This document shows positions 2,350 through 64,000 of a stretch of DNA of 64,000 nucleotides, piece after piece. The stretch comes from Fibrobacter sp. (GTDB taxonomy: Bacteria > Fibrobacterota > Chitinivibrionia > Chitinivibrionales > Chitinispirillaceae): assembly GCA_012513915.1 (NCBI GenBank), contig JAAZBG010000128.1, forward strand, positions 9,640-73,639, written 5' to 3'. The notes beneath the pieces were generated by a model. It searched no databases, was not told the DNA's origin, and saw only the letters and a list, made by a program, of their open reading frames with translations. Position 1 is the stretch's first letter; each line of letters begins with the position of its first letter. The position numbers and the translations under genes were made by a program.

Positions 2350-2386
2350 AATTGGTACATTATGCAAGAGTGATGGAGCCTTGTAT

Positions 2387-10680: not shown

Positions 10681-11253
10681 ATGAATAAAACGCTATTGGA
10701 ACCTACCAGAGAGCTTCTTGATGAATGTATGGCTGGAAATCAGCTGGCATTTAAAGAAATCTTCTACATGTATCGTTCCTATGCTTACAACCTGATCTAC
10801 AAAATTACAGGGCCTCAGGGGGATCATGAGGATCTTTTGCAGGAAGTTTTTTTTCAGATTTATCTATCGTTAAAGACTTTTCACGGAGATTCGTCATTTA
10901 AAACATGGTTTCACAGAGTTGTTATTCATGTGTGCACAAGACGGTGGCGGTATCAAAAGGCTGAGAAACGAATTAATCCGAAGGATACGGTGAATCTTGA
11001 ATCCGTTGAAAATATTGTTCCTAATGCTGAGATGGGTACACTGAAACAGCTTGAGTTGAAAGATCTGGTTGAGCAGGCCCTTGAAACTGTAGATTACAAA
11101 CTAAGGATACCTTTGGTTCTTAATATATATGGTGAGATGGATTTAGCAGAAATCGCTGGAATTATGGGAATACCGGAAGGTACTGTTAAATCAAGATTGT
11201 TTACGGCGAGAAAACAGATAAAGGATTTTCTCGATACAACTGATAAAGAGTAG
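10681..11253 (+). CDS. ECF-type RNA polymerase sigma-70 family factor
   Basis: Region 2 (DLLQEVFFQIY..F.G.S.FKTW..R) and region 4 (IAGIMGIPEGTVKSRLFTARKQI). Confidence 0.85.
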   Translation: MNKTLLEPTRELLDECMAGNQLAFKEIFYMYRSYAYNLIYKITGPQGDHEDLLQEVFFQIYLSLKTFHGDSSFKTWFHRVVIHVCTRRWRYQKAEKRINPKDTVNLESVENIVPNAEMGTLKQLELKDLVEQALETVDYKLRIPLVLNIYGEMDLAEIAGIMGIPEGTVKSRLFTARKQIKDFLDTTDKE

Positions 11254-11256
11254 ATA

Positions 11257-13527: not shown

Positions 13528-13619
13528 TCCGCTTAATCAAAGACCAGGTGTGATGCCGGTACTTCACAGGCGCATCTCATTGAGTTTCATGCAATCCCGG
13601 TTCAATATAAACCGTAATA

Positions 13620-13786
13620 ATCCTAAATGGCGCAGTTGGCGGGGGTGCAGAACTGTAATATATTGAGATGATAAGCTTTGAAAACCTCGCAGGCTTTATC
13701 GACGGGTGATAAGGTCAAGAGGTTTGAAACGCTTAGCGCTCAATAGATTACGGTTTTGCGCCGCGATCAACTGCGCCATTTAGGAT
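13620..13786. repeat. 167-bp rod-like imperfect palindrome with perfect 19-bp termini
   Basis: atcctaaatggcgcagttg (13620-13638) is the exact reverse complement of caactgcgccatttaggat (13768-13786). Inner segments also pair (ctgtaatatattgag / ctcaatagattacgg; aagctttgaaaacctc / gaggtttgaaacgctt). AATA flanks both ends. Confidence 0.75.
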
Positions 13787-13903
13787 AATACAGTATGGAC
13801 TACTGTGCCGGTCTGGTTAATAAAAAAGATTGAAATTGATGTGCTTGTAACATAATATATTTTCAATGTATTATTTCTTTTTATCTTTAACAGGAGTACC
13901 TCG

Positions 13904-26376: not shown

Positions 26377-27702
26377 ATGAAAATTATCACCACTATGGCT
26401 CTTATCTGCGTTTGTTATTCTGCAACGCATGCTGTTACAAATTTTAACAGATTTATGCTGAAATTAAAAACATTTGAATATCCTCAGTACACAATATCAG
26501 ATCCATCACTGAGTTTTAACCTGAGCAGCTACGGTACTGAAACGCGCGGTAATTATTCAGAAGAATCATATTATTATGTCAATGGACAAGCTAATGGTGC
26601 GTATAAATTTACTATGATTCGCCCGATGTATTGGCTTGATGTCAATACATCACTGGCAGCTTCCGGGCGTTACGGTGAAACAGAAGAATTCTATCAGGGT
26701 GATATCAGAAAATCAAAAGACAAATATTTACGTGCAAATTCTACACTGCATTCGCAATATGAGCTTCATCCCTTTGCTGAACTATTTAACAATATTTTAT
26801 TCGCTGGTGTGACTGTGGATAACTGGTATAGGCGGGAATGGAACAAATCAACGCTGTATGAAGCTACAAATGATTATAATGATCTTACAGGTAAAGCAGA
26901 GGTCGGTGTAAGTTTTCGAAAACCGGTACGACCATTGTATGCAGCGTTCGAAATGGAACGTAAGCTCAAAGAGGCTGGCGTTATTACCGATACCCTGACA
27001 TCAGAAACGTTGTATGAACTTTCCAGGGTGGTTATAAGGCGTGAAAAGCTGATATTACGTCATGATAAAGATCTAAAGTATGTTATGGAACAGATAGAAA
27101 ATGTACTTGTAAAGGATCGTGCTGTTGATACAACAAAACTTAATGCATTTGCGGTATTTAAAATCAGTGAAGCACTTGACACACACATCCCTGTGATCTA
27201 TACCGGATTTAAAATGTCTCTTGGTGTAGCAGGTGTTGGTATATGGAGACCATCGGGATATTATAATCCGGTGACAGATCATCGCGGCACAGATGACTAC
27301 TACAAAACAGTGATGGAACTTGCATTGTCGTATACTGTGCCTGTTTGCAGCAGACTGTTTTTTTATACAGAAATGACAAAAAGAGCAACTGGAGAATACG
27401 AAGGATTCGAACATAATTTCAAGCATCAGGTGGTTAATGCCGGGGTGCATTATATGTTTACAGATAGATTAATAGGAACTGGCGGTATTAACGGCCTTGC
27501 CTGTAAATACTTTGTACCTGAGAATAAACGGATAGAAAGTGTATTTATGGAACTTGAGTTCTATCTTGAGGACAATGTAAGCCTGAGTCTTGATGGTTCA
27601 AGAAACTTTGGCGGAATGTCAAGCAGCAAGTATTATACAAATCCGTCTCAGGGTGATCAAAGAAGTTTTTCTGCCGGAATGTGGCTGAAGTTCGGGTTGT
27701 AG
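26377..27702 (+). CDS. Hypothetical secreted protein, outer-membrane beta-barrel candidate
   Basis: It has a signal peptide (MKIITTMALICVCYSATHA), abundant Tyr/Gly alternating beta-type segments and an aromatic-rich C-terminus (GMWLKFGL). The gene is AT-rich. Confidence 0.5.
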   Translation: MKIITTMALICVCYSATHAVTNFNRFMLKLKTFEYPQYTISDPSLSFNLSSYGTETRGNYSEESYYYVNGQANGAYKFTMIRPMYWLDVNTSLAASGRYGETEEFYQGDIRKSKDKYLRANSTLHSQYELHPFAELFNNILFAGVTVDNWYRREWNKSTLYEATNDYNDLTGKAEVGVSFRKPVRPLYAAFEMERKLKEAGVITDTLTSETLYELSRVVIRREKLILRHDKDLKYVMEQIENVLVKDRAVDTTKLNAFAVFKISEALDTHIPVIYTGFKMSLGVAGVGIWRPSGYYNPVTDHRGTDDYYKTVMELALSYTVPVCSRLFFYTEMTKRATGEYEGFEHNFKHQVVNAGVHYMFTDRLIGTGGINGLACKYFVPENKRIESVFMELEFYLEDNVSLSLDGSRNFGGMSSSKYYTNPSQGDQRSFSAGMWLKFGL

Positions 27703-27788
27703 AGTGTATGTGTATATAGAAAAAATTTCAATACCTGTTAGATGTTTACAACGTCGGAACGTTGGCAGATTCTGTTTAAGCCGATTGT

Positions 27789-28952
27789 TTAAATTACAAT
27801 AATAGAAGCGGGAAAATGAATGTCAGATACTTTTACTTTTTTATTATCTGTAACATCAAAAAGGTAGTTTCCATTAGAATATATAAATCTGTCGTGAGAA
27901 ATTACACGGTATGTACAAACACCTTTTGCTTTTACAGTAATATTTTTATCTTTTGAAATGCTGATTAATTCCCATGATCCGGGGATATATCCGGCAAATT
28001 GATTGTCATATTTGAGATTTTCCTTGTAATTTTTCTGAGCTTCAATTCTGATATTGTCATACATCATGTCTTCTGGTACAGATTGCGATTTCGCAGGGTT
28101 TGGACCTGATGTAATCAGTGGTTTGCCGGTGTTTTTAATAGTAAAGAATTCAATCGCCCTGAAAATCGCAACACCAAGGCGGTAAGGAATCAGGAAAATT
28201 TCAAGGAGTGACATAGCGTTTCGGACTGGTTTGTAGGGGCGACGGATACACCAGATGTTACCGGCATCATCGATTTGCGGATTTACTAAATCATAGTTGT
28301 CGTTTGCAAAAAGCTCCTCAAGTTCTGATGTTACAAGATTTATTTTCATTATTGATCGGGAGTAAACTACACGTTGGCCGCTACTGTAAAAACCTGCTGG
28401 TGCACTATCAAATAATAGTATGTCAGGATCTCCGGGATCCCAGCAGGGGTTACGATCGATAGAAATCCCTTCAGTGATTTCGTTGTATTGAGAAGTGCCT
28501 TTTTTGCAAATGGCAATATTCTGCTCGCCGTTTTTGTTGATAACTGAAAAAGCAATACGACCATCGCTATTCGATGCGATATCAAAAATTTTAAGCTGAC
28601 GATCATGTAGGATATGCCCCTCATTATCAATTCCTTCAACAGCGATCGAACGTCTGAATACTCCACTGGTATCCCCGACAGTAACACTATAGATAATTTC
28701 ATCATGTCCATTTGAGCTGATTCCGGTAATGCGTGCCATTGCATGCAATGAATCAATATGTTCATTAGTTAGTGAGGATTGTTCGTGCCTGAATTGTGCC
28801 CCGTAACCTTCAGTTTTCCAGGAGTGCTTTTTCACAATCTGGGCATGGTTGGAGCAGTATTGATTGATAAATTCACTTGTGAGCTTTTGTGTTTTACCAT
28901 TGTCAATAATTACGATTTTTTCATTCTCGGAGCAAATTATTCTGTTGATCAT
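27789..28952 (-). CDS. Hypothetical protein, possibly beta-propeller-like, with one internal hydrophobic helix
   Basis: A long ORF with repeated D.(D/S)G.I.F-type strands and a hydrophobic stretch (LLEIFLIPYRLGVAIFRAIEFF). I recognise no family motif. The gene is AT-rich. Confidence 0.5.
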   Translation of the reverse strand: MINRIICSENEKIVIIDNGKTQKLTSEFINQYCSNHAQIVKKHSWKTEGYGAQFRHEQSSLTNEHIDSLHAMARITGISSNGHDEIIYSVTVGDTSGVFRRSIAVEGIDNEGHILHDRQLKIFDIASNSDGRIAFSVINKNGEQNIAICKKGTSQYNEITEGISIDRNPCWDPGDPDILLFDSAPAGFYSSGQRVVYSRSIMKINLVTSELEELFANDNYDLVNPQIDDAGNIWCIRRPYKPVRNAMSLLEIFLIPYRLGVAIFRAIEFFTIKNTGKPLITSGPNPAKSQSVPEDMMYDNIRIEAQKNYKENLKYDNQFAGYIPGSWELISISKDKNITVKAKGVCTYRVISHDRFIYSNGNYLFDVTDNKKVKVSDIHFPASIIVI

Positions 28953-29204: not shown

Positions 29205-29606
29205 CTAAAAAACATAATGAAAACTAACGCTGTTTGAAGATGCCTTTAAATACATCCTTTTAAATCTGTTCTTATTATAAGTACACTTGATTGTTGTATA
29301 TGTTGTAAAAACTGTAAGCGGAATACATACATATAATATTTTCTTCCCAAGTATCTTCTGTGAGTAATCTTTTGTTTTATGAGTCGTTGTGTCGTTAAAG
29401 ACTGTAGTTTTGGAATATTTTATTTCGGGTTTTGAATTATATTTGTTAATTCCAAGTATGTCAACTGCTATACATGACGCAAGACCGATGCAGCTGATTA
29501 CCTGTAGTTCTCCATATTTCTCATATTCCTTCTTTAAATAGGACTGTTCTGAAAAAGACAAAGATACTAACATCGAAATAATAAAAGCCGTAAAATGAAT
29601 CCTCAT
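29205..29606 (-). CDS. Hypothetical small membrane protein
   Basis: A 133-aa ORF with an N-terminal signal/TM segment and two more hydrophobic segments. It is very AT-rich and I recognise no homology. Confidence 0.35.
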   Translation of the reverse strand: MRIHFTAFIISMLVSLSFSEQSYLKKEYEKYGELQVISCIGLASCIAVDILGINKYNSKPEIKYSKTTVFNDTTTHKTKDYSQKILGKKILYVCIPLTVFTTYTTIKCTYNKNRFKRMYLKASSNSVSFHYVF

Positions 29607-30826: not shown

Positions 30827-31963
30827 CTATAAAGCTTGTACTGAAAGTGTAATTTCCTGACCATTAATACCGGTAACCGCAAGACTCCTCCCGCCAGTTG
30901 ACAGTTTGTAACCATCAGCTTTAGTTGCGAGTCCGTTTGGATTACCTTTGTATTGTATGTCAACTGACAGAGTGTTGTTCCTGGTGTTCCAGCTGCGTTC
31001 ATTTACACTGGTGACACCTGCTATACCCTTAAGGGTACTGATTACATTGTTCTTTATTCTGGCTGTTGCAACAGTATTAACAGTAATTGTAATCAGTACA
31101 CCGATCCTGGTCTGATTTTGCCAATCTTTAATAAGTGAATCAAGTATCGTTTCAGCACATTTCTTCGCTGCCGCTGCAATAGCCTGAGTACCTGCTGTTT
31201 GCGGGCTGATATGAGCTTTTTCGGTATGCTCTGATGCAGTTGCGATAACATGTGCAGTTATGCAGTTTATTGCTTTAATTGTTACATCCGCATCAACAGC
31301 AATCATTCCGTCTGCGTTCTCAGATGACATTTCCGCACGGCGACTGGTTGCTGTGCCGGTAATAAAAACGTCGGCACCAAACCGGGTTCCAAGTGATGCA
31401 ACTTCAGCAACGTTGCTTTCGGGTGATACGATCTTCTGTTTGTTACGTTTAATCGTAGTTACTATTTTCTGATCAACAATTTCGAATCCGTAAGGGTCTT
31501 TGAGTGCTGCTATAATTGCAGTTTCCGCTGATGTATTCCCGGGATCATCATTATTGATGTTGCTTTCGTTGATAACGATCAGTACTTTGGGCTTACTCAT
31601 CGATTCAATCACAATCTTTGATGCAGCGAGTTCATCACGTAAAGTCTGCTTTGAAATAGCCACTTTAATCACGAGTTTAAGAAATCCATCATCCTGAGTA
31701 TGCTGGGAAAGTATCTGGTAGGTTTTTATTGCACCGATAGTTTTTGTGAGCACCAGATCACGTTTTGCCTTGAAATTTTCACGCTCTGTTTGCGAATGAA
31801 GTATCTTTTCGATACCTTTTTCAATCGCATCACGTTTTGCAGCTTTAAGCGCCTCACGCTGATTAGCACCAATACCCTGCCCATCAACATCAAATGTATC
31901 CTGAGCTGACGACGTCCCGAATAAAATTAACAGTGCTATAAAAAGTAACAGACCTCTGCTCAT
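30827..31963 (-). CDS. Hypothetical secreted protein (repeated alpha/beta modules, LPP20/CsgG-like flavour)
   Basis: It has a signal peptide (MSRGLLLFIALLILFGTSSAQ). Segments such as KPKVLIVINE...AETAIIAAL...GFEIVD resemble the periplasmic alpha/beta modules of CsgG/LpoB-type proteins. This assignment is weak. Confidence 0.5.
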   Translation of the reverse strand: MSRGLLLFIALLILFGTSSAQDTFDVDGQGIGANQREALKAAKRDAIEKGIEKILHSQTERENFKAKRDLVLTKTIGAIKTYQILSQHTQDDGFLKLVIKVAISKQTLRDELAASKIVIESMSKPKVLIVINESNINNDDPGNTSAETAIIAALKDPYGFEIVDQKIVTTIKRNKQKIVSPESNVAEVASLGTRFGADVFITGTATSRRAEMSSENADGMIAVDADVTIKAINCITAHVIATASEHTEKAHISPQTAGTQAIAAAAKKCAETILDSLIKDWQNQTRIGVLITITVNTVATARIKNNVISTLKGIAGVTSVNERSWNTRNNTLSVDIQYKGNPNGLATKADGYKLSTGGRSLAVTGINGQEITLSVQAL

Positions 31964-33040: not shown

Positions 33041-33290
33041 AACACACCTCATTTCAGAATATGATAACAGCTATTAAATTGATATGGACAAAGCAACCGT
33101 ACTTGACAATAGATATCGTCTGTGACTGTTCTGGTATATTTGGTGTTGATGTGATATACTGCGCATGATGCTTTCTAGATTATACAGGATTTAGGGATTC
33201 TTTCCAAGTGCCAATAACGATCGTGCACATGTGAAGGGAATAACGTATATTAATTAATCATTGGTTTTTCATAGGATTATGAGGGGTTAC

Positions 33291-33911
33291 ATGATGAGTA
33301 TTCCGGTAAAAAAAATATCTGGTTTGTGCTGTGCAGCCTGTGTCTTTCTGGTACTATTCAATAGTTTTTCTGAAGCTCAGGATGAGTCGCGTCCGTGGGA
33401 GCGGCTCGGTTTATCACAGACTGAGTGGCGGCTTATTAACGAGAACAATATTAGTATGCCCAAACTTGAACAACTGTTGAATGCGGGCATTTCGGTAGGT
33501 GAATATATTCAGAAACCCTGGGAACCTTTGGAGATGAATGAGGATAAATGGATAAAGAAACGCAGATCCGGCCTCACAAGTTATGATATCGAACTTGAGG
33601 CAACAAGGGGAAATGCCCAGGAATGGAAAAAAACCATGAACTATGATGTCGCCAGGGATATGCAACAGCTAAGCGGGAATGGCGAACTTTTCTCAAGCCT
33701 GTTTCTTCCGGGATATTATCAATATCATGTCGGGCAAAAACGCAAAAGCTATGTCATGGCCGGGCTTGCCGGCGGCGCTCTTGCATGGTTTACAATTGGA
33801 TGTATTGCCAATAAACGGGTTGAGGTCGCTCCGATCGCGCTTGTTATTGTTCCGGATATGATCTGGAGCTTTATTGATTACAAAATTGACAAAAAGAATA
33901 AAAACCAGTAG
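33291..33911 (+). CDS. Hypothetical exported/membrane protein
   Basis: It has a signal peptide (MMSIPVKKISGLCCAACVFLVLFNSFSEAQ) and a C-terminal hydrophobic pair (FLPGYYQYHVG..., AGLAGGALAWFTIG) reminiscent of DUF5683-type proteins. ATG 33291 follows GAGGGG. Confidence 0.5.
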   Translation: MMSIPVKKISGLCCAACVFLVLFNSFSEAQDESRPWERLGLSQTEWRLINENNISMPKLEQLLNAGISVGEYIQKPWEPLEMNEDKWIKKRRSGLTSYDIELEATRGNAQEWKKTMNYDVARDMQQLSGNGELFSSLFLPGYYQYHVGQKRKSYVMAGLAGGALAWFTIGCIANKRVEVAPIALVIVPDMIWSFIDYKIDKKNKNQ

Positions 33912-33912
33912 T

Positions 33913-34581
33913 ATGACAACACTCTATCTGACAAATAAAAACTGTTCTGTATGTGGTGAGAGTAACCGCTTTCCGCTGGTTGATCTTTCTCAAAAATTGA
34001 CAGGCATTCGCGATCTTGACGGGCGGCCATCACATATTCAGCGTTCACTGGTGTACATGTGGATTCAACGCTGTGAAAGCTGCAACTATTGTGCACCGGA
34101 CATTTCAGCAGAATGCAAAGTGGACCCATCATATATTAATAGCCCTGAGTACAAGGGTATTATTGATGATGTATCATTTCCGCTTACAGCAGTTGCTTTC
34201 AGGGCTCACAGTTTTCTTATGACATCAATGGGATCATTTGCAGACAGTGGTTGGGCACTGCTATGTGCTGCCTGGGTCTGTGATGATAACGGTGCCCCTG
34301 CAAATGCTATCGTATGCCGTAAAGAAGCTTTGACGCATTTCAGATACGCACAGGAAAAAAATCAGGAGTTCAGTCAGTCGCATGTCGAAGAAAATCTCAT
34401 ACTTATTGATATAATGCGACGTATTGGTGATTTTGATGCTGCTATGGAACTGTGTGATCAGGAGCTTCAGACGGATCATCCCGACACTATCTGGTTGCTG
34501 CTCGATTATGAAAAAGTGCTCATTGGGAAAAATGACACTGCTTGTCATAATGAGAGTGATATGGAGGAGATGGGGTTGTAG
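33913..34581 (+). CDS. Zinc-ribbon plus helical-repeat protein, DUF2225-like
   Basis: CSVCG...(32 aa)...CESCNYC is followed by a TPR-like helical C-terminus. The ATG lies 2 nt after the upstream stop. Confidence 0.45.
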   Translation: MTTLYLTNKNCSVCGESNRFPLVDLSQKLTGIRDLDGRPSHIQRSLVYMWIQRCESCNYCAPDISAECKVDPSYINSPEYKGIIDDVSFPLTAVAFRAHSFLMTSMGSFADSGWALLCAAWVCDDNGAPANAIVCRKEALTHFRYAQEKNQEFSQSHVEENLILIDIMRRIGDFDAAMELCDQELQTDHPDTIWLLLDYEKVLIGKNDTACHNESDMEEMGL

Positions 34582-34641
34582 GGGAGGCTGGAGGAAGTAG
34601 CCGGAATTCAGAAAAAACAGAATCAGGCAGGCTGCGAGTGT

Positions 34642-36516
34642 TTACGAATCATGTTCAATCAGTATTACCCCGTATTCAGGTAATGTGATAGTACCTTTGT
34701 ACGTCACTTGTTTTGATTGTTTTTCCCACATTGTATAGTTTGTACTTAACTGTTCAAATGATGTTGAGTCAATAATCTGTGCTTTACCGGTAATCTCTTT
34801 TGGAAAAATAAATGTCTGATCTGTATTTGTGATATTAGCGATGACAAGAAGTGATCGATCTTCCTTGTGCAGGTGAAATGCTACGAGGGATTTGGTATTT
34901 CCGGAAATCACCCTGCTAAATTGTCCGCCTGAGAATGGTGCAATCTTTGACAGAAGATGATAAGCCGGGGTGACTTTGTTTCTTATGTTGTCAAAAATAC
35001 CATGGTCACCATTGAATTGAAAAAGACAGAAAGAGTCGACATTGTATTGTATACTGTAAAAAAGAACACCTGCAGTCCATGCTGCTCCAAATAACCCATA
35101 GAGACGCATGTCCGGACCTCCGTCTTTGAGTGGATTTGACCTGTTGGTACGGGGGCGGAGCGTAATAGGTGTGATATGAACTTTTTTATTCCCGAAGAGT
35201 GTTTGTGCTGTATGAATTGTTGCACTGATCCCCGGCAGATTTTCCATGATCGATTCACTGTCAAATGTATGCACCTGAGGATTCAGTGAATAGCAGATGT
35301 GCTCGCACAAGTCAATTGCGCTGCGGTTGCGATTGAGCTCAACGAAATATTTGTCAGTGCCAAAGACAAGCGGTGTATCCGGATGTGCCTGGCCCAAGAT
35401 GGTTTTTGCATTGGTGATAGTTAATTCGGATACAATGACCTCACTTTGTTTAAGTATAATAATGCGGACTGGTTTGATACCGGATGCCGAAATACATTCT
35501 GCAACATGGGCAAGTTCTTTTGTAATATCGTCGGTACAGTACAGCACGAGCTCAGGTTTAATTAATAATGATCTGCAATGGGATAATATCGACACAATAC
35601 TACTGCAGGAATCCTCCATATCAAAAAAGATATCAAAACGGATATACGCAAACTGATTAATACGGTCACTGCTGACAGAATTAATTTTTGAATAGTCAAG
35701 GCAGGTTCCTATTTGCGGTACTTTGTATGTATTGCCTGAAAGATCATTACGTACTACCGGTACATTCTGTTTGTTTTCCCGGATTGATTTTGTGGTATTC
35801 ATGAGTGATGCAAATGTAAATGTGATTGTCTGTTCGATTGATGTTCCTTTTTCAACCAGAGCCGGTAATGGATCCGATAGTCTTGTACTGTAAATCTTAT
35901 ACGAGTAGTCGGTCCAGTTGCGCTGATCCTCCATTTCAAACAGATCACCATCAAAGGTGGCTGTTACGTTTGTATAATCGGTAACCGCATAGTGTATGCT
36001 CTTTATGTCAAGGTGTGGCTGCCAGGGTACAATCAGTTCAGGAAATATACAATCTATGCTGCTGTTGTCAGATCGTATCACCCTGTATTTTTTACCGGTA
36101 CATTGATCGATCGGAAGCAATGTACAGAATCCGATACGGTTTCTATAAAAAGAGGTGCGTGCCACCGCTTTGAAAGAAAATGTAAGCTCCCCGGATGATC
36201 GTCCATGTAGATTGAATGTTGAATCAAGGTTAATATCACCCTGCGAATATGTACCTTTGAATGTCAGTTTAAAGCCACTTGAATCGATCGACTGGTGAAT
36301 AATGGTGAATGAACCTGGAATGGTGTTCCAGTGACGATCTCTGAGGGCAAAGTAGATGCGGTTACAGACAGGGATCGTATCAAAGGTGATCCTGCGAATC
36401 ATTCCATCCTGAAAAATCAGATCAATAAGACCTGCTTTAAGGACTACTGGTGTTGGAGTCGCACAATCGCTACCATAAAGGATTCCGTTGAGCTCTGGAG
36501 TATTCATTTTTAACAT
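34642..36516 (-). CDS. Hypothetical 624-aa protein
   Basis: A long uninterrupted ORF with normal composition. I can name no family motif with confidence. Confidence 0.6.
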   Translation of the reverse strand: MLKMNTPELNGILYGSDCATPTPVVLKAGLIDLIFQDGMIRRITFDTIPVCNRIYFALRDRHWNTIPGSFTIIHQSIDSSGFKLTFKGTYSQGDINLDSTFNLHGRSSGELTFSFKAVARTSFYRNRIGFCTLLPIDQCTGKKYRVIRSDNSSIDCIFPELIVPWQPHLDIKSIHYAVTDYTNVTATFDGDLFEMEDQRNWTDYSYKIYSTRLSDPLPALVEKGTSIEQTITFTFASLMNTTKSIRENKQNVPVVRNDLSGNTYKVPQIGTCLDYSKINSVSSDRINQFAYIRFDIFFDMEDSCSSIVSILSHCRSLLIKPELVLYCTDDITKELAHVAECISASGIKPVRIIILKQSEVIVSELTITNAKTILGQAHPDTPLVFGTDKYFVELNRNRSAIDLCEHICYSLNPQVHTFDSESIMENLPGISATIHTAQTLFGNKKVHITPITLRPRTNRSNPLKDGGPDMRLYGLFGAAWTAGVLFYSIQYNVDSFCLFQFNGDHGIFDNIRNKVTPAYHLLSKIAPFSGGQFSRVISGNTKSLVAFHLHKEDRSLLVIANITNTDQTFIFPKEITGKAQIIDSTSFEQLSTNYTMWEKQSKQVTYKGTITLPEYGVILIEHDS

Positions 36517-42532: not shown

Positions 42533-43780
42533 TTAATGAGACTTAAGCGAAGTGACGTAAGGGTAGAGCACCAGCGCGTCGAAGACTTCTGCCGGAACGT
42601 ATACGTTGTTACTCACTCCTATTTTTTTGTTTGTAAAAGGTTCTCCGGTAAAGGGAAGATACACCGTCTGATTCGGGTAGAGGTCCGGAACAATCCTCAT
42701 GAGATCACTGGGATAGCTCTCTGCATAGGCGTCAAAATCCTTGCACGGAGAATTACTGCTAAATATCGGTATGTATCCCCGTACTGGAAGAAAGCAACCT
42801 GACCACACGCGGGACCCGTACCGTGCCTGGAGCCTTACGCCAACCCACGAACCTTCATTATCACCTACTATTGTAACGGCCTTTTTCCCTGCATGAGCGC
42901 TTCCGGAACCAACGATTACCTTTCCATACTGAGCGATAACGGATTCAATGTTCTCGGTGATCACGTCCTCTCTTAGCATATCACTTCTGTTTATCCGGCG
43001 ATGATATGATTTCACCTCGCAGGCAGTGAGCTGCATCAGCTTCGTATACCCCTCGTCCCCAAAGGATGTACGGTAGTGCGCCTCCCCGGCTTCCAAAGTT
43101 GACGCAATCTTCTCAAGAGCTTCGGGGTAGCCCTTATCCCAACACTTTCTGGGTAACGCAAAAAGTTCGGAAAAAAGCAAAGAATCCCGATAGAGCCAGG
43201 AGTCTTCAATAACTGACCAGTACACGGAATTGCTGTGATTCACATCGAAGGTTAGAAAATGGAGTCGCTCGTCTTCCGTTAAGGTTTGGTTGAACTCACG
43301 GATGGCGTCCACATACCCATACTTTGGTAACCACCGGGGGTAATCGCGCTTAAGCTGAACGTAGTCGTCAAAGATCATGCCAAGCGCGTGGTCCGTCTCA
43401 TGTACAAATGCCCTGAAGCCCGCGGCATGCAGGCGCTTAACAAACTCCGTGGTAAACAGGACATGCTCGAGGATATAGTGTTGCTCCCCAATAAAGACAA
43501 TATCATGGGCCGCAGCCGCAGCTACCAAGGTATCCGGGATGGTGTACTTGATTGAAGACGATGAGCCTACTGATGGCACGATTATGGCGGAAGCCTTGAC
43601 TGCGCTCTTGATGTGATCCACATCTTCGTAGGCACCCTTCCAGGTGATCGGGGGATAGATGTTGGTAAACTCATTATCAATGGGAAGCAGGGAATTACTA
43701 CATCCGGTAATTATAAAGAGAAAATGTGTACAAAGCATCGCTATCACGGCTCGTATCCAGTGAAAATTAATGGGTTTCAT
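42533..43780 (-). CDS. Lipoprotein, ChaN/Tiki/erythromycin-esterase-superfamily-like
   Basis: It has a lipobox (LFIITGC). The motifs IVFIGEQHY..EH and a later GSGSAH resemble the GExH...H signature of the ChaN/Tiki fold. It is GC-rich relative to its neighbours. Confidence 0.45.
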   Translation of the reverse strand: MKPINFHWIRAVIAMLCTHFLFIITGCSNSLLPIDNEFTNIYPPITWKGAYEDVDHIKSAVKASAIIVPSVGSSSSIKYTIPDTLVAAAAAHDIVFIGEQHYILEHVLFTTEFVKRLHAAGFRAFVHETDHALGMIFDDYVQLKRDYPRWLPKYGYVDAIREFNQTLTEDERLHFLTFDVNHSNSVYWSVIEDSWLYRDSLLFSELFALPRKCWDKGYPEALEKIASTLEAGEAHYRTSFGDEGYTKLMQLTACEVKSYHRRINRSDMLREDVITENIESVIAQYGKVIVGSGSAHAGKKAVTIVGDNEGSWVGVRLQARYGSRVWSGCFLPVRGYIPIFSSNSPCKDFDAYAESYPSDLMRIVPDLYPNQTVYLPFTGEPFTNKKIGVSNNVYVPAEVFDALVLYPYVTSLKSH

Positions 43781-44415
43781 AGTGCAACCCCCGCGGCGAG
43801 CCTGGCAATCAATCCATGCCCAAGGTTTGAGGAACCCTTCCAGAGAAAATCCATGGGCCGTATAGTAGTTTTTCCGCCAGACTCAACGGTTACATCCAAA
43901 CTCCCATCAAAGAATGCAAGTCCATACCCCGCCTCCGCTGCAAGGGTACAGCGTCCCCACATCCATCGCCAGCCGGCCTTCGCGTGTAAGCTGTGATAGG
44001 ATAGGTCAGTGGTTGCGGTATACGGCAATGGCTTTGTGGATTCTTTATCGGGGACATCCGCCTTAAAGGTTAATCGTGTCCAATCATACGCGAATCCTGC
44101 GTAGAGGCCCATGCGATCGTCCCGTATGTAGTTAGTAATGCCGGTCCCTATGTCGAGGTAATCTTTAACGGTCATGACCAAATGATCGTCATAGGCATTA
44201 TCTTGCTTTATGTTGATATTGGGAGAGGTTCCGCCCCTCAGTTCAAAGGCGGGTTTAAGAAAACCGATCGAAAGAGGAGGAGCGTATTCGGCGCATAGCC
44301 CAAGGCCAAAGGGAACGCCCGCACCAGCCTGAAGCCTCCACGGCTTCATCCCGGTTGGCTCCGCGTGCGCGGCAAGCGCCACTACGAGGGCAACCAGTGC
44401 AATTTTTAATGGCAT
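43777..44415 (-). CDS. Small secreted protein, outer-membrane beta-barrel candidate
   Basis: The start at ATG 44415 gives the signal peptide MPLKIALVALVVALAAHA. It has alternating beta-type segments. Its stop overlaps the downstream start (ATGA). The longer ORF to 44625 has no support. Confidence 0.5.
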   Translation of the reverse strand: MPLKIALVALVVALAAHAEPTGMKPWRLQAGAGVPFGLGLCAEYAPPLSIGFLKPAFELRGGTSPNINIKQDNAYDDHLVMTVKDYLDIGTGITNYIRDDRMGLYAGFAYDWTRLTFKADVPDKESTKPLPYTATTDLSYHSLHAKAGWRWMWGRCTLAAEAGYGLAFFDGSLDVTVESGGKTTIRPMDFLWKGSSNLGHGLIARLAAGVAL

Positions 44416-44766
44416 ACGTTTTGTATCCTTACCGTTTAGTGTGTAACTACTATACCACATCAGTATGTACATCGTATCGTTCTGATTCGCATCAATACGT
44501 GATCTCTGGCTGACTGGCAATTTGATTTTTATACTTATGGGTTCTTGAAAATAGTGATTGTATTGACCGGATACAACTGTTTTGATAAAACTTCGAAAAA
44601 GACAGCTACTGTTTATCGGGTTCAATGGCGCTTCGGTATTGCCGTTTTTATGGTCAAGCCTGATGAGTGCAAGGATTATGCTTTTGTATGTAATAAAAAG
44701 GGTGGTTTACAAAAAAGAGTTGCATTTTTTAGAATGAAAATATGTAGTTTCAATTGGTACAGGCGT

Positions 44767-46520: not shown

Positions 46521-46561
46521 CAAAATGCCCTCCCACTCTAAATCATATTAGAGTGGGAGGG
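46521..46561 (-). terminator. Hairpin terminator overlapping the radical SAM stop codon
   Basis: A 13-bp perfect stem ccctcccactcta (46528-46540) / tagagtgggaggg (46549-46561) is followed on the minus strand by cATTTTGTT. Confidence 0.6.
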
Positions 46562-47553
46562 TTAGAACCGCTGTCATCTCCTGTTAATGCCTCAGATTTT
46601 CTTTTTGTAAAATCAATGATAAACCCCTTATCCTGCTCCCCAATCTCCTGGAAAAAAACCTGAAAACCTGCATTGACAAAAGCATCCTTGACACGGTTGT
46701 ATTCATCACCGGTGATCATCCGGTTAATTTCCGGAAATGATACTGCATTGTAGAGCGGTCGATATTGTGACATAAGGCTAACGGAAATATCTGATGGATC
46801 GAAGGTCGCTTTTAAAAAGTCAAGAATCTGCAGGCTCGAATCCACCGCACCGGGAAGCACCAGATGGCGAATGCACAAACCCCGATAGGCATTATCGAAC
46901 TGATCACACCTGAGTGATCCTGTCTGGCGAAACATCGTACGTATTGCCTCGCGGTTCCGTTCAACATAATCAGGTGCTTTCGAGTATTTCGTCGCAAAAA
47001 CATTGTTGCCATATTTCATATCAGGGAGGTATATATCAATGATTCCGTTCAGTAACTCGAGAACGCTGGTGTTTTCGTAGCCGCTGCTATTATACACAAC
47101 CGGAATCGATAATCCTTTTGCGGCTGCAATTTTTAATGATGCAACGACTCTGTGCATGTAATGTGTCGATGTCACAAGATTGATATTATGGCAACCCTTG
47201 TTCTGAAGCTCAAGCATTGCATCCGCAAGTTCTTCATTGGTATACGGGCGCCCTTCATACTCATGTGATATCTGATAGTTCTGGCAGAAACAGCATTTAA
47301 GGGTACAATAAGAAAAAAACACAGTCCCGGAACCGTTGTTCCCGCTGATTGGTGGTTCTTCACCGTGATGCGGAAAAATGCTTGAAATAATCATCTGGTC
47401 CGGTGCTCCGCAGAATCCCCGTTTATTCTCAAGTCGGTTTACACCGCAATTACGGGGACATAGTGAACACGAACTGGCAATGCGGGATAATCCCGCGATT
47501 TTGTCATCCCACTCCTGAGATGAAAGATAACAATATGATGCAGTATGAGTCAT
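46543..47553 (-). CDS. Radical SAM protein, PflX-like (COG1313-type putative activating enzyme)
   Basis: CSLCPRNCGVNR....G.CG, HHGEEPPISG..GSGTVFFSYCTLKCCFCQNYQIS. Confidence 0.8.
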   Translation of the reverse strand: MTHTASYCYLSSQEWDDKIAGLSRIASSCSLCPRNCGVNRLENKRGFCGAPDQMIISSIFPHHGEEPPISGNNGSGTVFFSYCTLKCCFCQNYQISHEYEGRPYTNEELADAMLELQNKGCHNINLVTSTHYMHRVVASLKIAAAKGLSIPVVYNSSGYENTSVLELLNGIIDIYLPDMKYGNNVFATKYSKAPDYVERNREAIRTMFRQTGSLRCDQFDNAYRGLCIRHLVLPGAVDSSLQILDFLKATFDPSDISVSLMSQYRPLYNAVSFPEINRMITGDEYNRVKDAFVNAGFQVFFQEIGEQDKGFIIDFTKRKSEALTGDDSGSNPPTLI

Positions 47554-47554
47554 A

Positions 47555-47596
47555 GATTATTAATAATGAACTGTTGATTGTTAATAATGAACTGTT
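47555..47596. repeat. Tandem 21-bp direct repeat (2 units) immediately upstream of the radical SAM start codon
   Basis: gattattaataatgaactgtt (47555-47575) and gattgttaataatgaactgtt (47576-47596) match at 20/21 positions. The repeat ends 1 nt from the start codon (47551-47553) and takes the place of an SD. Confidence 0.85.
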
Positions 47597-47615
47597 AATC
47601 CCCCCTCTCCATTTT

Positions 47616-48971
47616 TTATGAAGAGGAAACCAGGGGGTGAGCCTTTCCCCAATACCGTCGTACAAGACCAGTTATTGACAAGTGCGATGCACCTGGAAAA
47701 CGCTGACGTAACACATGTTCCAGTGCATCACCGAATGCCTTTGCTGAAGCATAACGTACCGACAGATTAAGGGCCAATGACTTGTCAATAATATCACTAA
47801 TTGATTTGTCAACATGTGCTACTTTGTGAAGTGGCGTATAATTACCTGCAAGTTTTTGTGTAAAAAGAACGCCGCTGTTTCCCTGATTGAATGCACGTTT
47901 ACCAGCTATAAGTTCATAAATCGTTGCACCAAGTGCATAGATGTCAACTTGTAAATTCGGTTTGTTACCGTTGAGCTGCTCCGGTGCAAGGTAGGGAAGT
48001 GTGCCTACGATGTTGCCGGTATTTTTTGTATGTAAAGAAACTTTTTCAGGACGGGCAATTCCAAAATCGGTGAGCCTGATTCTACCATTTCTGCTGAGCA
48101 TGATATTTGCCGGTTTAAGGTCCCGGTGAATAATTCCCTTATAGGTTGTTCCGTAAATGTTAATCGTCTGAAGATGTGCATAATGTAATGCACGACAGAT
48201 AAGAATACCGGTAATGAGAGCCTGCTCTGGATTAATAAATTTACATTTAGATAATATGTCCTCAAAAGAAACGCCGTCCAGATATTCCATCTCGAGGTAG
48301 GGAAGTCCATGCCAGTCTCCAACACTGAAACATTTGACAATATTAGGATGATCCAGCTTCGCGAATATTCTGATTTCAGTTTCAAACCGCTTAAGAACTG
48401 CTTCAGGTTGATCGGGTTTGAGTACCTTTACCGCGCGATAAACTTCAAGGCGGTGGTTCCATATTAGATAAACATCTGCCATGCCGCCTGATCCAAGTAA
48501 TTTCACGATTGAACCGCTGGGGAACTCTCTGAAACGATTCACAACATCTGATTTGTCAAAAGTTATTGCTGTCGTCGGGCCATTACGCAACTTGCTGCCC
48601 GCTACGACAATTTTACCTGTAGAATTATCATCTACTTGAGAGATTATGTTTCCCCCACAAAGTTTTCGGAAGACATGGTTTGCAGAGTCAGTCTTCGGAA
48701 TAGTCTTGATAAAATCATCGTTGTCGGGTGGAACAAAAGTACCATCATCAATTTCATCTTCTAATGGTTCAAGCTGTAAGTGCGGGTTACTGTTGGTAAT
48801 TGTGGGCGATTTTTTGACAAGTACAAACCATCCCAGTAAAAAGAAAAGCGTAAAGAAATATAGTATTGTATTCCGGAAAAAATGACCGTCAGAGAAAAGG
48901 AGAACGCCAGGAATTAAGCCTATAAGGACAATCGTTGCGGTCGCAACAGCGATACCATTAAGCGGCTTCAT
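47616..48971 (-). CDS. Membrane-anchored Ser/Thr protein kinase (Hanks type)
   Basis: Two N-terminal TM helices are followed by GSGGMADVY, AVK, HRDLKPANIML, DFGIARP and GTLPYLAPE. Confidence 0.9.
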   Translation of the reverse strand: MKPLNGIAVATATIVLIGLIPGVLLFSDGHFFRNTILYFFTLFFLLGWFVLVKKSPTITNSNPHLQLEPLEDEIDDGTFVPPDNDDFIKTIPKTDSANHVFRKLCGGNIISQVDDNSTGKIVVAGSKLRNGPTTAITFDKSDVVNRFREFPSGSIVKLLGSGGMADVYLIWNHRLEVYRAVKVLKPDQPEAVLKRFETEIRIFAKLDHPNIVKCFSVGDWHGLPYLEMEYLDGVSFEDILSKCKFINPEQALITGILICRALHYAHLQTINIYGTTYKGIIHRDLKPANIMLSRNGRIRLTDFGIARPEKVSLHTKNTGNIVGTLPYLAPEQLNGNKPNLQVDIYALGATIYELIAGKRAFNQGNSGVLFTQKLAGNYTPLHKVAHVDKSISDIIDKSLALNLSVRYASAKAFGDALEHVLRQRFPGASHLSITGLVRRYWGKAHPLVSSS

Positions 48972-49021
48972 ATGACTCCTTTATTTACATAATAATCGGG
49001 TTATCTAAAACGGAATTGTGT

Positions 49022-50653
49022 TTAAATGTCAAATGAAAAATCAAACTGTATCGAATTGCCATCAATGACTGACTGCGAATTGAGCGCGATTGACAGCTCT
49101 TTTCCATTAAGAGTGACTGTAAGAGCATTTAATGGCGATATGACACCATATGGTTCAAGCTGTTTTATTAGATGCTGCTCAAGTGACGAAGCAAGAGTTT
49201 CAGGAGTCATTCCGATTCCATCAACAGCAATGAAATGTTCTGCATGTCGTATTGAACGATTAAGCAGCATATTAAACCCGATTGATGCATAGCGTTCATT
49301 ACCGGATGCATTCAGCATGACACTTGGAGCGATGATAATTCTGCCGTTTCTGATTCTGACAAAGGTGAATCCGGCTTTTGCGATTTCCCTGATCCGGTGC
49401 GGTGGAATCTGCTGCATCAGCTGATCATCAATTAATTCCGATGTTGTCAGTGATGTCATATCAAAGGGAGATCCTGTTGAAAGAAACGTCGAAACCCAGT
49501 GATCCGCAAGAATCCATGCACCACCGGCAATCAGATTATCTTTTGCGCTGCTGATATGCAATGATGGGCCGCATAATGCTATCGAACGTGCAGCGCTCTC
49601 GTTACGTAAACAATCAATTGCTGCATCAATTGTTTGATGATCACCGATCGTCTCTACAGATACAATCCGTTCAAAATAGAGATCATCCTGTGCCAGGCTT
49701 GTCCATACCATTGAACGTGCAGCGTCTGCGATCGCTGCTGTTTTGTGTAGTGTGTCAAGTGTGTCAATATCAAGATGATTGTTTTCGTAGCTTAAAAGGA
49801 CAATGTCGGGTGCGTTACCATCATTTACAAGTGATCCGAGCGCAGATTGATAATGCTCAAATGCATTGTCAGATGCACTACTGTAAAGGTATACCTCAAA
49901 CAGTTTACTGCGGCCCATCTTCTTTAAGAGATTACGCAACGCATACCACGATGATGCAATCGTGGAATAATGTGATGATGATCTCAATGCTGCTGCAGTT
50001 TTATCTATTGTGTCAGCAAGCAGAAGCTGAACCTTCGAAAGCTGATTTATTCTGTATCCCGGGTTGTTGCTGTCATCTCCCAGAACGTTAATCAGTTGCT
50101 CCAGTGGTGATGTCTGTGGTGTACCGGTATCGATCATCGACATGATTGAATCGGCAAAGGATCCGCTATTCTGAGGTGTGCTCTGTGGCTTGACTTCAGC
50201 ACTCAGAGCAATCACGATCTGTTGTTTCAGCGGTGATGCAAGTTCCAGTGCCCTGATCTTCGTCGCTGCATCACTGGATGACACCTGTTGTTTTGCGACA
50301 CTGTCAACAATTGCCTTTGCGTCTATAAGCGATTTTGTCGTCTGGCAATTCTGAAGTATCAATTCTTCAGAAAAGTCGCTTAAAGCCACGATGTTTGATA
50401 AAACCGTAAATGGCTCGATAAATTCCGGGAGCCCCTGAGCAACGCGACCCTTTATTTCAACGTTGCAGCTCTTTAAAAAGTCCTGTATTGTCCCTGATGA
50501 AATAAACTGAGGCTGCTGACTTACATACCCAAAGTCTCCACATACTAATAAAACCCATGGTTTTATCTCTTTTGGCCGGGATGATGGACTATTTTGCAGG
50601 TGTGCACCGAGGCTTACGCTCGACGTCTGAATGAGTGATTCTTCCTGGGACAT
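49022..50653 (-). CDS. Hypothetical protein resembling a fused TssB(VipA)/TssC(VipB)-type contractile sheath subunit
   Basis: The ORF itself is solid. The N-terminus (KPWVLLVCGDFGY...IQDFLKSCNVEI...ALSDFSEELI) parallels the TssB pattern. The C-terminal part (REIAKAGFTFV, GFNMLLNRSIRHAEHFI....G....LE..L, and the ending ..SIQFDFSFDI) parallels TssC. The assignment comes from remembered family patterns only. Confidence 0.4.
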   Translation of the reverse strand: MSQEESLIQTSSVSLGAHLQNSPSSRPKEIKPWVLLVCGDFGYVSQQPQFISSGTIQDFLKSCNVEIKGRVAQGLPEFIEPFTVLSNIVALSDFSEELILQNCQTTKSLIDAKAIVDSVAKQQVSSSDAATKIRALELASPLKQQIVIALSAEVKPQSTPQNSGSFADSIMSMIDTGTPQTSPLEQLINVLGDDSNNPGYRINQLSKVQLLLADTIDKTAAALRSSSHYSTIASSWYALRNLLKKMGRSKLFEVYLYSSASDNAFEHYQSALGSLVNDGNAPDIVLLSYENNHLDIDTLDTLHKTAAIADAARSMVWTSLAQDDLYFERIVSVETIGDHQTIDAAIDCLRNESAARSIALCGPSLHISSAKDNLIAGGAWILADHWVSTFLSTGSPFDMTSLTTSELIDDQLMQQIPPHRIREIAKAGFTFVRIRNGRIIIAPSVMLNASGNERYASIGFNMLLNRSIRHAEHFIAVDGIGMTPETLASSLEQHLIKQLEPYGVISPLNALTVTLNGKELSIALNSQSVIDGNSIQFDFSFDI

Positions 50654-50849
50654 AATTTTTTAGAACCTTCTGTGCTGGTGAATGGATTTTAAATGTATAT
50701 TATATAGTTTGTTTATACGACTGGTAAATTGAAACAGATCATTTACCAGTTATTTCCTGAATCGTCCGGATCAGGTTCAGGAAAACTAATATTTTGAAAA
50801 TAATAAAAGACAGATAAAACTGAAAATTAAACTAAGGAGAATGTAAAAA

Positions 50850-62492: not shown

Positions 62493-62594
62493 TAAAATAC
62501 CGGCTAATACTGTAGTTCGTTTGGTCACTTTGAATTAATGAAACCGGGTTGCCCGTGCTGACCTCAGTATTTATCAACAGGAGAAAGTGTAGAA

Positions 62595-64000
62595 ATGATT
62601 TCAACGATCAGAAAGCGTGATGGAAAACTTGTACCGTATGATAACTACAAAATTGCCAATGCAATTTTCAAGGCGATAGAGGCAACCGGTGGTAATGATT
62701 TCGGACTGGCTCTCTCCCTTGCTAAAAATGTGGATGATGCCATTGGAAAAAAGTTCCATCCCAAATCAATTCCTGCCGTTGAAGAGCTACAGGATCTGGT
62801 CGAAAAGGTACTTATCGAATTCGGACACGCAACGGTCGCAAAATCATACATTCTCTATCGTGAACAGCATCGGCGCATCAGAAGTACAAAAGATCTTGTT
62901 GTTGACATTGAGTCAACAATGAATGGATATCTTGATAAAGCAGACTGGCGGGTTCTGGAAAACTCAAATGTCAATTATTCCCTTGGCGGACTGATACTTC
63001 ATAATAGCGGTACAATTACTGCAAATTACTGGCTGGAAAATATCTATGGTCATGATATCTCCACGGCGCATAGAAATGGTAATATTCATATACACGATTT
63101 ATCAATGTTTTCAGGGTATTGTGCAGGATGGTCATTGCGTCAATTGATCACTGACGGGCTCGGAAAAGTAAAAAACAAGATTTCATCAAAACCGCCAAAT
63201 CACCTGTCAACGCTTGTCCAGCAAATGGTCAGCTTTCTGGGTATTTTACAAAACGAATGGGCAGGCGCTCAGGCGTTTTCATCATTTGATACCTATCTTG
63301 CACCGTTTGTACGGGTTGACAATTTAAACTACAGTGAAGTGAAACAGCACATTCAGTCTTTTGTTTTCGGCGTTAATACGCCATCACGCTGGGGTTCGCA
63401 GGCTCCGTTTACAAATATTACCCTGGACTGGACCGTACCGGATGATCTGCGGAATCAACCTGCAATTGTCGGGGGAAAGCCGCTTGAAAAGACATATGGC
63501 GAATTTCAGACGGAAATGGATATGATAAACAAAGCTTTTCTTGAAGTGCTGCTTGAAGGCGACGCGGATGGGAGAGGGTTTTCATATCCGATTCCTACCT
63601 ATAACATTACCCGCAATTTTAACTGGGATAGCGACAATGCGCGCCTGTTATTTAAAATGACCGGTAAATACGGTACTCCCTATTTCCAGAATTTCATGAA
63701 CTCCAACCTGGATCCGTCTGATGTACGCTCGATGTGCTGTAGATTGCAGCTTGATAAGAGGGAACTACGTAACAGGGGTGGCGGTTTGTTCGGATCAGAT
63801 GAATTTACAGGGTCAATAGGGGTTGTAACAATTAACCTGCCGCGCATCGGATATCTGTCAACCTCGCGTGAAAATTATTTCCGCCAGATTGATCATTATA
63901 TGGACATCGCACGGGACTCACTCGAAATAAAACGGAAAGTTATTTCAAAACTGATGGATCAGGGGTTGTTTCCCTATACAAAAAGATATTTACGTCACTG
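62595..64000 (+). CDS. nrdD: Anaerobic ribonucleoside-triphosphate reductase, 3'-partial
   Basis: My own translation from ATG 62595 (SD aggaga upstream) gives MISTIRKRDGKLVPYDNYKI..AI (ATP-cone) ... NGNIHIHDLS...GYCAGWSL ... YPIPTYNIT ... RSMCCRLQLD. The frame is open to the window end. Confidence 0.95.
   Translation, partial: MISTIRKRDGKLVPYDNYKIANAIFKAIEATGGNDFGLALSLAKNVDDAIGKKFHPKSIPAVEELQDLVEKVLIEFGHATVAKSYILYREQHRRIRSTKDLVVDIESTMNGYLDKADWRVLENSNVNYSLGGLILHNSGTITANYWLENIYGHDISTAHRNGNIHIHDLSMFSGYCAGWSLRQLITDGLGKVKNKISSKPPNHLSTLVQQMVSFLGILQNEWAGAQAFSSFDTYLAPFVRVDNLNYSEVKQHIQSFVFGVNTPSRWGSQAPFTNITLDWTVPDDLRNQPAIVGGKPLEKTYGEFQTEMDMINKAFLEVLLEGDADGRGFSYPIPTYNITRNFNWDSDNARLLFKMTGKYGTPYFQNFMNSNLDPSDVRSMCCRLQLDKRELRNRGGGLFGSDEFTGSIGVVTINLPRIGYLSTSRENYFRQIDHYMDIARDSLEIKRKVISKLMDQGLFPYTKRYLRH

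Follow-up and report, generated by a model that had tools for sequence, protein, structure and literature searches.

Results

A single-chain sheath homologue heads a three-gene operon

We analyzed a 64,000-nucleotide stretch of a Fibrobacter sp. contig (JAAZBG010000128.1, assembly GCA_012513915.1, positions 9,640 to 73,639; hereafter the window) and found that the 543-aa product of a minus-strand gene at 49022-50653 is a divergent, loop-trimmed, single-chain homologue of the TssB+TssC sheath protomer that type VI secretion systems (T6SSs) employ, with all three sheath domains kept. This sheath-like gene, a single open reading frame (ORF) rather than two subunits, is the first gene of an operon. 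It is followed on the same strand by the genes for a chimeric, membrane-anchored Hanks-type Ser/Thr kinase of 451 aa (47616-48971; ORF list, Pfam and BLASTP) and for an activase-like (PflX-like) radical SAM enzyme of 336 aa (46543-47553; ORF list and Pfam). We hold the identity of the protein and the account of its context, taken together, with high confidence. Most likely, the sheath has been exapted into a phospho-regulated module linked to the cell wall, and we lean toward the reading that it works there as an orphan sheath with the kinase module.

T6SS sheaths are canonically TssB/TssC heterodimers. The preliminary description of this DNA had recognized a TssB-like N-terminus followed by a TssC-like remainder, and profile, profile-profile and structure evidence agree on both parts and on their order. 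Scanned singly against Pfam and NCBIfam, the 543-aa protein returned only a sub-threshold match to VipA (E=0.035, 14.3 bits, below the gathering cut-off (GA) of 24). Among 14 close homologues, 13 match VipA (PF05591; best 1.8e-7) and three match VipB, and the family members P0031, P0040 and P0049 exceed the Pfam VipB cut-off (proteins and loci are given under our own P and L numbers). A profile search had been proposed as a check, and a family profile (A2) built from a 40-sequence alignment matched TssC in the PDB at E=5e-13 (5urw_1B, query 155-376 onto TssC 8-247) and TssB at 1.8e-7 (5urw_1A, query 1-149). The same profile matched other TssC, VipB and IglB chains at 5e-9 to 1e-5, IglA at 2.8e-6 and VipA at ~1e-5, and all 18 of its best PDB sequence matches are T6SS sheath subunits.

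The homology extends over the whole length of the protein. Against 37 fused VipA+VipB(+VipB_2) proteins, hhalign aligned the family at 100% probability (E=1.9e-52) over 548 columns from the N- to the C-terminus, with all domains present and with the ~90-100 missing residues accounted for by scattered loop deletions. The protein had been called shortened, which is correct in that ~90 residues are trimmed from loops without loss of any domain. A TssB-like part (about residues 1-150) and a TssC-like part (about residues 198-543) are joined by a low-confidence linker (about residues 153-197) that carries a conserved DSIxSMxD motif; this motif aligns with LD.LL.MVD of fused TssBC proteins, at the beginning of their TssC part. 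Conserved residues are distributed along the full length of the family alignment. Overall, the protein shares with the T6SS sheath TssB/TssC (VipA/VipB, IglA/IglB; PF05591 + PF05943 + PF18945) the same three domains in the same order and a series of paired motifs (window family first): PW.ILVC.D.GF and P.R.L...DL, DSILSM.D and LD.LL.MVD, SW..L and W.GLK, and GFNLLVNR and SLP.QL...R. Unlike TssB/TssC, it is one polypeptide, is ~90-100 residues shorter and falls under the Pfam cut-offs by itself, and in the window and the examined loci its gene is not clustered with genes for the tube, spike, baseplate, membrane complex or ClpV.

Structure prediction, another of the checks proposed, led to the same protein class. 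A first AlphaFold2 (AF2) model from 14 sequences reached a predicted local distance difference test (pLDDT) score of 64, and Foldseek nevertheless already pointed to sheaths; with a deeper alignment the model reached pLDDT 80.9 and a predicted TM-score (pTM) of 0.79. At E≤1e-3, all 49 of its 49 Foldseek matches in the PDB are contractile sheath proteins. The six best are T6SS sheaths (TssC, VipB, IglB), with top E-values of 4e-8 to 2e-7 and target-normalized TM-scores of 0.45-0.62. Sheaths of phage tails and extracellular contractile injection systems (eCIS; Afp, PVC, pyocin) rank below these in Foldseek and gave no sequence-level matches, and no tail genes were found in the window.

In real sheaths, an N-terminal arm and C-terminal strands are swapped between adjacent subunits. 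Both elements are conserved in the family alignment, which shows almost no variation at S6 and I8 of the N-terminal arm or in the FxFSF strand of the C-terminus. The arm was left unmodelled in the AF2 monomer, as would be expected of a strand that becomes ordered only within a polymer.

The nearest relatives outside the family are fused TssBC proteins, at E-values of 1e-16 to 1e-4 in profile searches. One of them, MBI1926566.1 of Candidatus Poribacteria (P0086, 645 aa; L035:10001-15897, GCA_016178185.1), has the same fused architecture. It scores strongly above the VipA, VipB and VipB_2 thresholds and is directly followed by TssK, DotU/TssL and IcmF/TssM, whereas the window family has no such neighbors. 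Since fused forms thus occur in genuine T6SS clusters, two separate subunits are not strictly defining for a T6SS sheath, and a TssB-TssC fusion alone does not amount to loss of T6SS function. Another fused VipA+VipB+VipB_2 protein (P0113, 630 aa; L036:4841-6733, GCA_900175145.1, FWWM01000041.1) is followed by genes for a protein with an HTTM domain, a WD40 protein of 1113 aa and a caspase-like protein (Peptidase_C14), with no T6SS core gene seen in the L036 stretch; this may be a second, unrelated orphan-sheath context.

A Fibrobacterota family maintained by purifying selection

An initial word-index search returned 15 relatives at 35-93% identity, several of which JGI records label "predicted component of type VI protein secretion system" and NCBI records "hypothetical". 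We then searched 1.84 billion cluster representatives exhaustively with a profile and obtained 136 matches, of which ~47 (clusters at 50% identity) are full-length family members of 530-570 aa with E<1e-30. The next set consists of 570-654-aa proteins that Pfam identifies as bona fide fused VipA+VipB(+VipB_2). The family is set off by E-values of ≤1e-30 within it versus ≥1e-16 to the canonical fused forms. A second word-index search with the 40-sequence alignment added no further members. A metagenome scan yielded 27 further loci, with 22-42% identity to the window protein and 25-65% GC, and a scan of genome contigs with patterns specific to the close clade found two contigs of metagenome-assembled genomes (MAGs) only. 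An identical protein sequence is present on an ENA contig with identical neighbors. All named members come from Fibrobacterota MAGs (Chitinivibrionales, Chitinispirillaceae or "Fibrobacter sp."), and intact ORFs of 530-570 aa are kept at identities to the window protein as low as 18-30%.

We estimated dN/dS ratios (nonsynonymous to synonymous substitution rates) by the Nei-Gojobori method in pairwise comparisons among the window, L006, L007 and L003. The ratios were 0.10-0.19 for the sheath-like gene, including within the clade that bears the deletion described below, 0.12-0.25 for the kinase gene and 0.10-0.18 for the radical SAM gene, and 0.03-0.05 for the neighboring iPGM gene. Purifying selection maintains all three operon genes, also after the deletion.

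These values speak to a suggestion in the preliminary description that the protein could be a remnant. A pseudogene-like leftover decaying after loss of a T6SS, without present function, could be read from the length of 543 aa versus 580-654 aa in canonical fused sheaths and from the continuing reduction of the locus in the window lineage, where fecR and CHASE2 sequences are deleted and FHA-SLT is absent (see below). The low dN/dS of the sheath-like gene across the four lineages compared, the full-length intact ORFs in ~47 clusters, the invariant residues over the whole length and the confident fold prediction all stand against decay. Because dN/dS is low and ORFs are intact across the family, we conclude that this is no decaying remnant and consider such decay very improbable. 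In an evolutionary sense, the locus may be a relic of a T6SS along with its Thr-phosphorylation regulators.

In relatives, the sheath-like gene begins a five-gene module

ORF maps annotated with phmmer, Pfam and precomputed annotations revealed a larger gene set in relatives, in the order sheath-like gene, FecR, CHASE2 Ser/Thr kinase, FHA-SLT and radical SAM. The module is complete in L015, L019, L021, L025, L037 (Chitinispirillaceae, GCA_016929595.1) and L038, with neighboring genes 12-120 nt apart or overlapping. L005 carries a partial version, as do L009, L022-L024, L026, L030, L032 and L034, truncated contigs that are consistent with the full order. Closer to the window protein, L003 (85% identity) and L004 (42%) have the sheath-like gene, a FecR-domain gene, a gene for a 760-794-aa CHASE2 kinase and the radical SAM gene, and the operon of L005 (35%) begins alike. 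The FecR partner is secreted and carries a LysM domain in the L037 copy. The FHA-SLT protein, of ~550 aa, is bitopic: a single transmembrane segment separates a cytoplasmic, phosphothreonine-binding FHA domain at the N-terminus from a periplasmic SLT lytic transglycosylase domain at the C-terminus. An FHA(-SLT) gene is present in L015, L019, L021, L024, L025, L032, L037 and L038. The trio of sheath-like, kinase and radical SAM genes had been proposed as a unit to look for in other genomes; kinase and radical SAM partners are indeed kept down to 22-27% sheath identity, but the trio itself turned out to be a reduced form of the five-gene module.

The module recurs beside genes for iPGM, NAD synthase and a GT21 glycosyltransferase, and is therefore a vertically inherited chromosomal locus, not an island. 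An SLT gene and an OmpA-like gene are located at the module or shortly downstream of it in L015, L019, L021 and L025. A 536-942-aa ORF upstream of the module in high-GC loci ("fam18") was rejected as a spurious antisense ORF with a low-complexity, Arg/Val/Gly-rich translation.

The conserved order invites the question of whether position alone links these genes, that is, whether the sheath-like gene is independent and merely lies upstream of an envelope signaling operon (FecR, CHASE2 kinase, FHA-SLT and radical SAM). One clade of the family (L010-L014, L016 and L018) and P0033 have the gene singly, without the kinase module, among unrelated neighbors such as flavin reductase, DnaX, GH5 and DsbA-like genes. 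Where the module is present, the partners are much better conserved than the sheath-like gene of the same loci (FecR 1e-100 and kinase 1e-210 vs sheath 1e-35), and in the window a promoter-like spacer precedes the radical SAM gene. However, the sheath-like gene and the gene after it keep the same strand, the same order and a spacing of 12-120 nt or an overlap over 39-65% GC and at 22-27% sheath identity, and this link is kept where flanking genes differ. After the deletion in the window lineage, the kinase gene still lies 50 nt downstream of the sheath-like gene and is still under purifying selection. On this evidence we judge a merely positional neighborhood to be unlikely.

On the JGI 3300075153 contig, the standalone sheath-like gene encoding P0033 lies 160 nt downstream of a GH25 lysozyme gene, with genes for an FHA-GAF-sigma54 activator and a Pkinase-PEGA protein 7-10 kb downstream. 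Cell-wall and phospho-signaling neighbors are present here again, in another arrangement.

The window kinase is a deletion chimera

The window kinase matches Pkinase at E=8.7e-43 (residues 156-411), has intact HRD, DFG and APE motifs and, judged by eye, two N-terminal hydrophobic segments, in line with the membrane Hanks kinase that had been assigned to the second gene. To judge from its motifs, it looks catalytically intact. By BLASTP, the 451-aa protein is 78% identical over its alignment to residues 358-793 of the 794-aa L003 kinase. At the DNA level, blastn breakpoints and the junction alignment place a single clean gap of ~2.1 kb between the window and L003 (L003 about 11724-13841). The first ~14 codons of the window kinase gene (48928-48971; MKPLNGIAVATATIV) and the spacer upstream of them are those of the fecR-like gene (L003: MKPLYGIAVIAATIV), and this fecR-derived start continues in frame into the CHASE2 kinase at its last transmembrane helices. 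A 2.1-kb in-frame deletion thus removed the fecR-like gene and the CHASE2 sensor and left a sensor-less, still membrane-anchored kinase that begins at the old fecR start. The chimeric architecture is also found in L001, L006 and L007, representing three or four independent assemblies, and is not an assembly artifact, because the same architecture is present in two MAGs at 93% identity (L006 and L007). The FHA-SLT gene is absent from the low-GC clade (window, L003 and L004), and the 64-kb window holds no homologue of it.

A second FecR-domain signaling pair is present in the window at 10681-13527, where a gene for an ECF-type sigma factor is followed by one for a 756-aa FecR-PEGA-TPR protein; its sequence is unrelated to the deleted fecR-like gene.

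The three minus-strand ORFs and the gaps of 50 and 62 nt between them are as the preliminary description gave them from the ORF list and sequence. A promoter-like site on the minus strand, TTTACC-18-TATAAT (50699-50728; a consensus match only), lies within the 196-nt divergent region that separates the iPGM gene (plus strand, from 50850) from the sheath-like gene. The 50-nt spacer ahead of the kinase ATG (48972-49021) contains a Shine-Dalgarno sequence, AGGAG, and is homologous to the spacer preceding the fecR-like gene in relatives, as seen in an alignment with L003. In the 62-nt spacer between the kinase and radical SAM genes (47554-47615), a repeat search identified two tandem, 95% identical, AT-rich direct repeats of 21 bp on the minus strand (47555-47575 and 47576-47596). 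The repeats were thus correctly described, but they fill only 42 of the 62 nt, not the whole spacer. They are conserved in L006 and partly recognizable in L007 and L003, and a promoter-like consensus match overlaps them (47584-47556, minus strand). A GC-rich hairpin (CCTCT..AAAA..AGAGG) that covers the kinase stop codon, just upstream of the repeats (47555-47640 region), is also conserved. The repeats and this hairpin may form an internal regulatory site or a promoter for the radical SAM gene. The terminator assigned to the end of the operon is borne out by an intrinsic-terminator-like hairpin computed at 46528-46561 on the minus strand, with a 14-bp stem, eight GC pairs and a T-rich tail; its loop covers the radical SAM stop codon.

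The radical SAM enzyme matches PF04055 (E=5.6e-9, 36.8 bits vs a cut-off of 29.5) and Fer4_12 and has a CX3CX2C motif. It is 84% identical to its L003 orthologue, and its gene is the 3'-terminal one of the module in the window clade, L003, L004, L015, L019, L021, L025, L037 and L038. In its motif and Radical_SAM domain it resembles PflX/COG1313 and the glycyl-radical activases (PflA, NrdG; AmmeMemoRadiSam TIGR04337), and the label "PflX-type" is plausible from its sequence. Unlike those activases, it has no adjoining glycyl-radical enzyme, and its NCBIfam matches (NrdG2, PflA, AmmeMemoRadiSam) are weak and fall far short of the cut-offs. A search by sequence turned up no solved relative. A gene for the anaerobic ribonucleotide reductase NrdD lies on the plus strand at 62562-63998 and runs off the window end. 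We considered the radical SAM enzyme as the NrdG of this NrdD and rejected the link: the two genes are 15 kb apart with unrelated genes between, and the score also speaks against it.

No T6SS core genes were found in the window or in locus flanks

The preliminary description had found no T6SS or phage-tail parts elsewhere in the window, and a Pfam survey bears this out. We scanned ORFs of at least 130 aa outside the operon and re-scanned unassigned ones at E≤1, with precomputed hits from an identical contig for the PilM/N/O-HDOD-glycosyltransferase block. The survey of the 64-kb window found tryptophan biosynthesis, GcpE, iPGM, glycosyltransferases, an HDOD protein, PilM/N/O and secretin, GGDEF proteins, a Tex protein, NrdD and similar families, and none for Hcp, VgrG, PAAR, baseplate, TssJLM, ClpV or phage tails. 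Likewise, no T6SS core gene was present within about 10 kb on either side in ~17 independent loci from at least two Fibrobacterota classes, as judged from precomputed Pfam families in seven loci and from Pfam spot checks in the other metagenome loci. Conserved neighbors in the spot-checked loci are housekeeping genes, and neither a PppA-type (PP2C) phosphatase nor ClpV was found in annotated or Pfam-scanned flanks.

Could the protein nevertheless be the ordinary sheath of a working T6SS encoded elsewhere, dislocated from its cluster, with the kinase (and the FHA protein in relatives) as its Thr-phosphorylation switch? It has kept both terminal arms along with all three sheath domains, true T6SS clusters such as that of L035 do use fused TssBC proteins, and pairs of Ser/Thr kinases and FHA proteins are classic T6SS accessories. 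The SLT and OmpA-like genes near the module recall T6SS accessories that handle peptidoglycan. Elsewhere, however, tssBC genes are nearly always clustered with hcp, tssE and tssK, whereas no core gene accompanies the sheath-like gene in the window or in the flanks of the ~17 loci. Further evidence against a dislocated sheath is that the family, under the Pfam thresholds, is far more divergent than working fused sheaths, that its synteny with housekeeping genes is stable and not that of a mobile T6SS island, and that the phosphatase and ClpV are missing from the flanks. A further point in its favor is that Chitinispirillum alkaliphilum, a cultured member of the same phylum, has been reported to have a T6SS (PMC4814513). 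We rate this explanation as improbable, on a par with the positional one.

Nine sizeable ORFs in the window, lying within 26-2287, 26377-28952, 29205-29606, 30827-31963, 33261-36516 and 43777-44625, had no Pfam family at E≤1. None resembles a T6SS part; the ORF at 26-2287 gave faint C-terminal signals of the type IX secretion system kind (CHU_C, FlgD_ig). An ORF without assigned function adjoins an HTH-WYL-WCX regulator gene at 2381-3316. Regulators of this type are often linked to defense or DNA-damage loci. For the operon and module genes, an anti-phage defense system was considered and rejected: PADLOC gave only generic kinase-domain matches (PD-T4-6, mad6) and none for the sheath-like, radical SAM, FecR or FHA-SLT proteins.

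Discussion

To our knowledge, contractile sheaths are known only within injection machines, namely phage tails, pyocins, eCIS and T6SSs. Our literature search found no description of this family or of an orphan or fused TssBC protein tied to CHASE2, FecR and FHA-SLT; its one pertinent result was the T6SS reported for C. alkaliphilum. The preliminary description had proposed a non-canonical use of the sheath fold outside the T6SS, and the confirmed homology and the absence of core genes at the loci support it; we regard an exapted orphan sheath working with the kinase module as somewhat probable.

In this exaptation, the sheath-like protein would no longer work with a tube and baseplate. Instead, by analogy with known sheaths, it might use the strand-exchange elements it has kept to self-assemble into a helical polymer or tubule in the cytoplasm. 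VipA and VipB co-expressed without other T6SS parts are said to have formed tubules in work by Bonemann et al. in 2009. The kinase could then set the assembly state or the partner binding of the sheath-like protein, much as PpkA and Fha1, according to a 2007 study by Mougous et al., reportedly control assembly of the H1-T6SS in Pseudomonas aeruginosa. In the full module, a peptidoglycan-sensing input (LysM/FecR and CHASE2) would be coupled to a peptidoglycan-cutting output (FHA-SLT), and the kinase of the window lineage would be constitutive or under some other control. For the radical SAM enzyme, modification of a protein partner would be a guess. We view this polymer-plus-kinase mechanism as quite possible, if short of probable.

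The analogy with the PpkA/Fha1/PppA pathway (P. aeruginosa H1-T6SS, Agrobacterium TssL-Fha) draws on gene content. In relatives of the window locus, genes for an FHA protein and for a membrane Hanks kinase whose sensor is periplasmic likewise lie next to sheath genes, and the FecR/LysM periplasmic accessory is comparable in position to TagR. Unlike that of PpkA, the sensor of the relatives' kinase is CHASE2 and not vWA; unlike in the Fha1 pathway, the FHA domain shares one polypeptide with a transmembrane segment and an SLT lytic transglycosylase, and no PP2C was seen in scanned flanks. The window itself departs further, with no FHA protein, sensor domain or FecR partner.

Several observations weigh against an exapted sheath that acts with the kinase. 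The no-core-gene result covers the window and the locus flanks, so the absence stands at the scale of the locus, and the T6SS reported for C. alkaliphilum falls within the same phylum. A kinase and an FHA protein, as typical T6SS accessories, fit a working T6SS as well as they fit exaptation. The standalone clade and P0033 mean that the coupling of sheath and kinase is not obligatory. Inspection of the family alignment identified no conserved phospho-acceptor threonine in the sheath-like protein, and no glycyl-radical-type motif either. By analogy, the N-terminal arm and the C-terminal strands that the protein retains are suggestive of polymerization. Membership of the radical SAM enzyme is the weakest link in the functional unit; its gene sometimes follows after a gap of ~400 nt, and the window copy is preceded by a promoter-like spacer of its own.

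A tentative and broader extension, which we find somewhat doubtful, is that this sheath descendant, without tube and baseplate, is a lineage-wide cytoplasmic polymer of Fibrobacterota, its assembly switched by the envelope kinase and coupled through FHA-SLT and LysM/FecR to the sensing and remodeling of peptidoglycan. If true, it would be a new bacterial cytoskeletal or mechanical element and the first sheath of a contractile injection system exapted to a non-secretory cell function.

A sheath homologue in a signaling context that would be non-secretory is of interest mainly if a T6SS proves to be missing from the genomes as a whole. Genome surveys could miss these proteins or wrongly score genomes as T6SS-positive, because the records name them "hypothetical" or, at JGI, "predicted component of type VI protein secretion system". 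The window lineage offers a naturally occurring deletion of the sensor for comparison with the full module. If our reading is true, a sheath homologue that purifying selection keeps throughout a phylum-level lineage, in every case apart from the other machine parts and usually linked with a module of kinase, FHA and cell-wall genes, would mean that the sheath fold is reusable by itself, and the family would provide a simple one-gene system for studying sheath polymerization and its control by phosphorylation.

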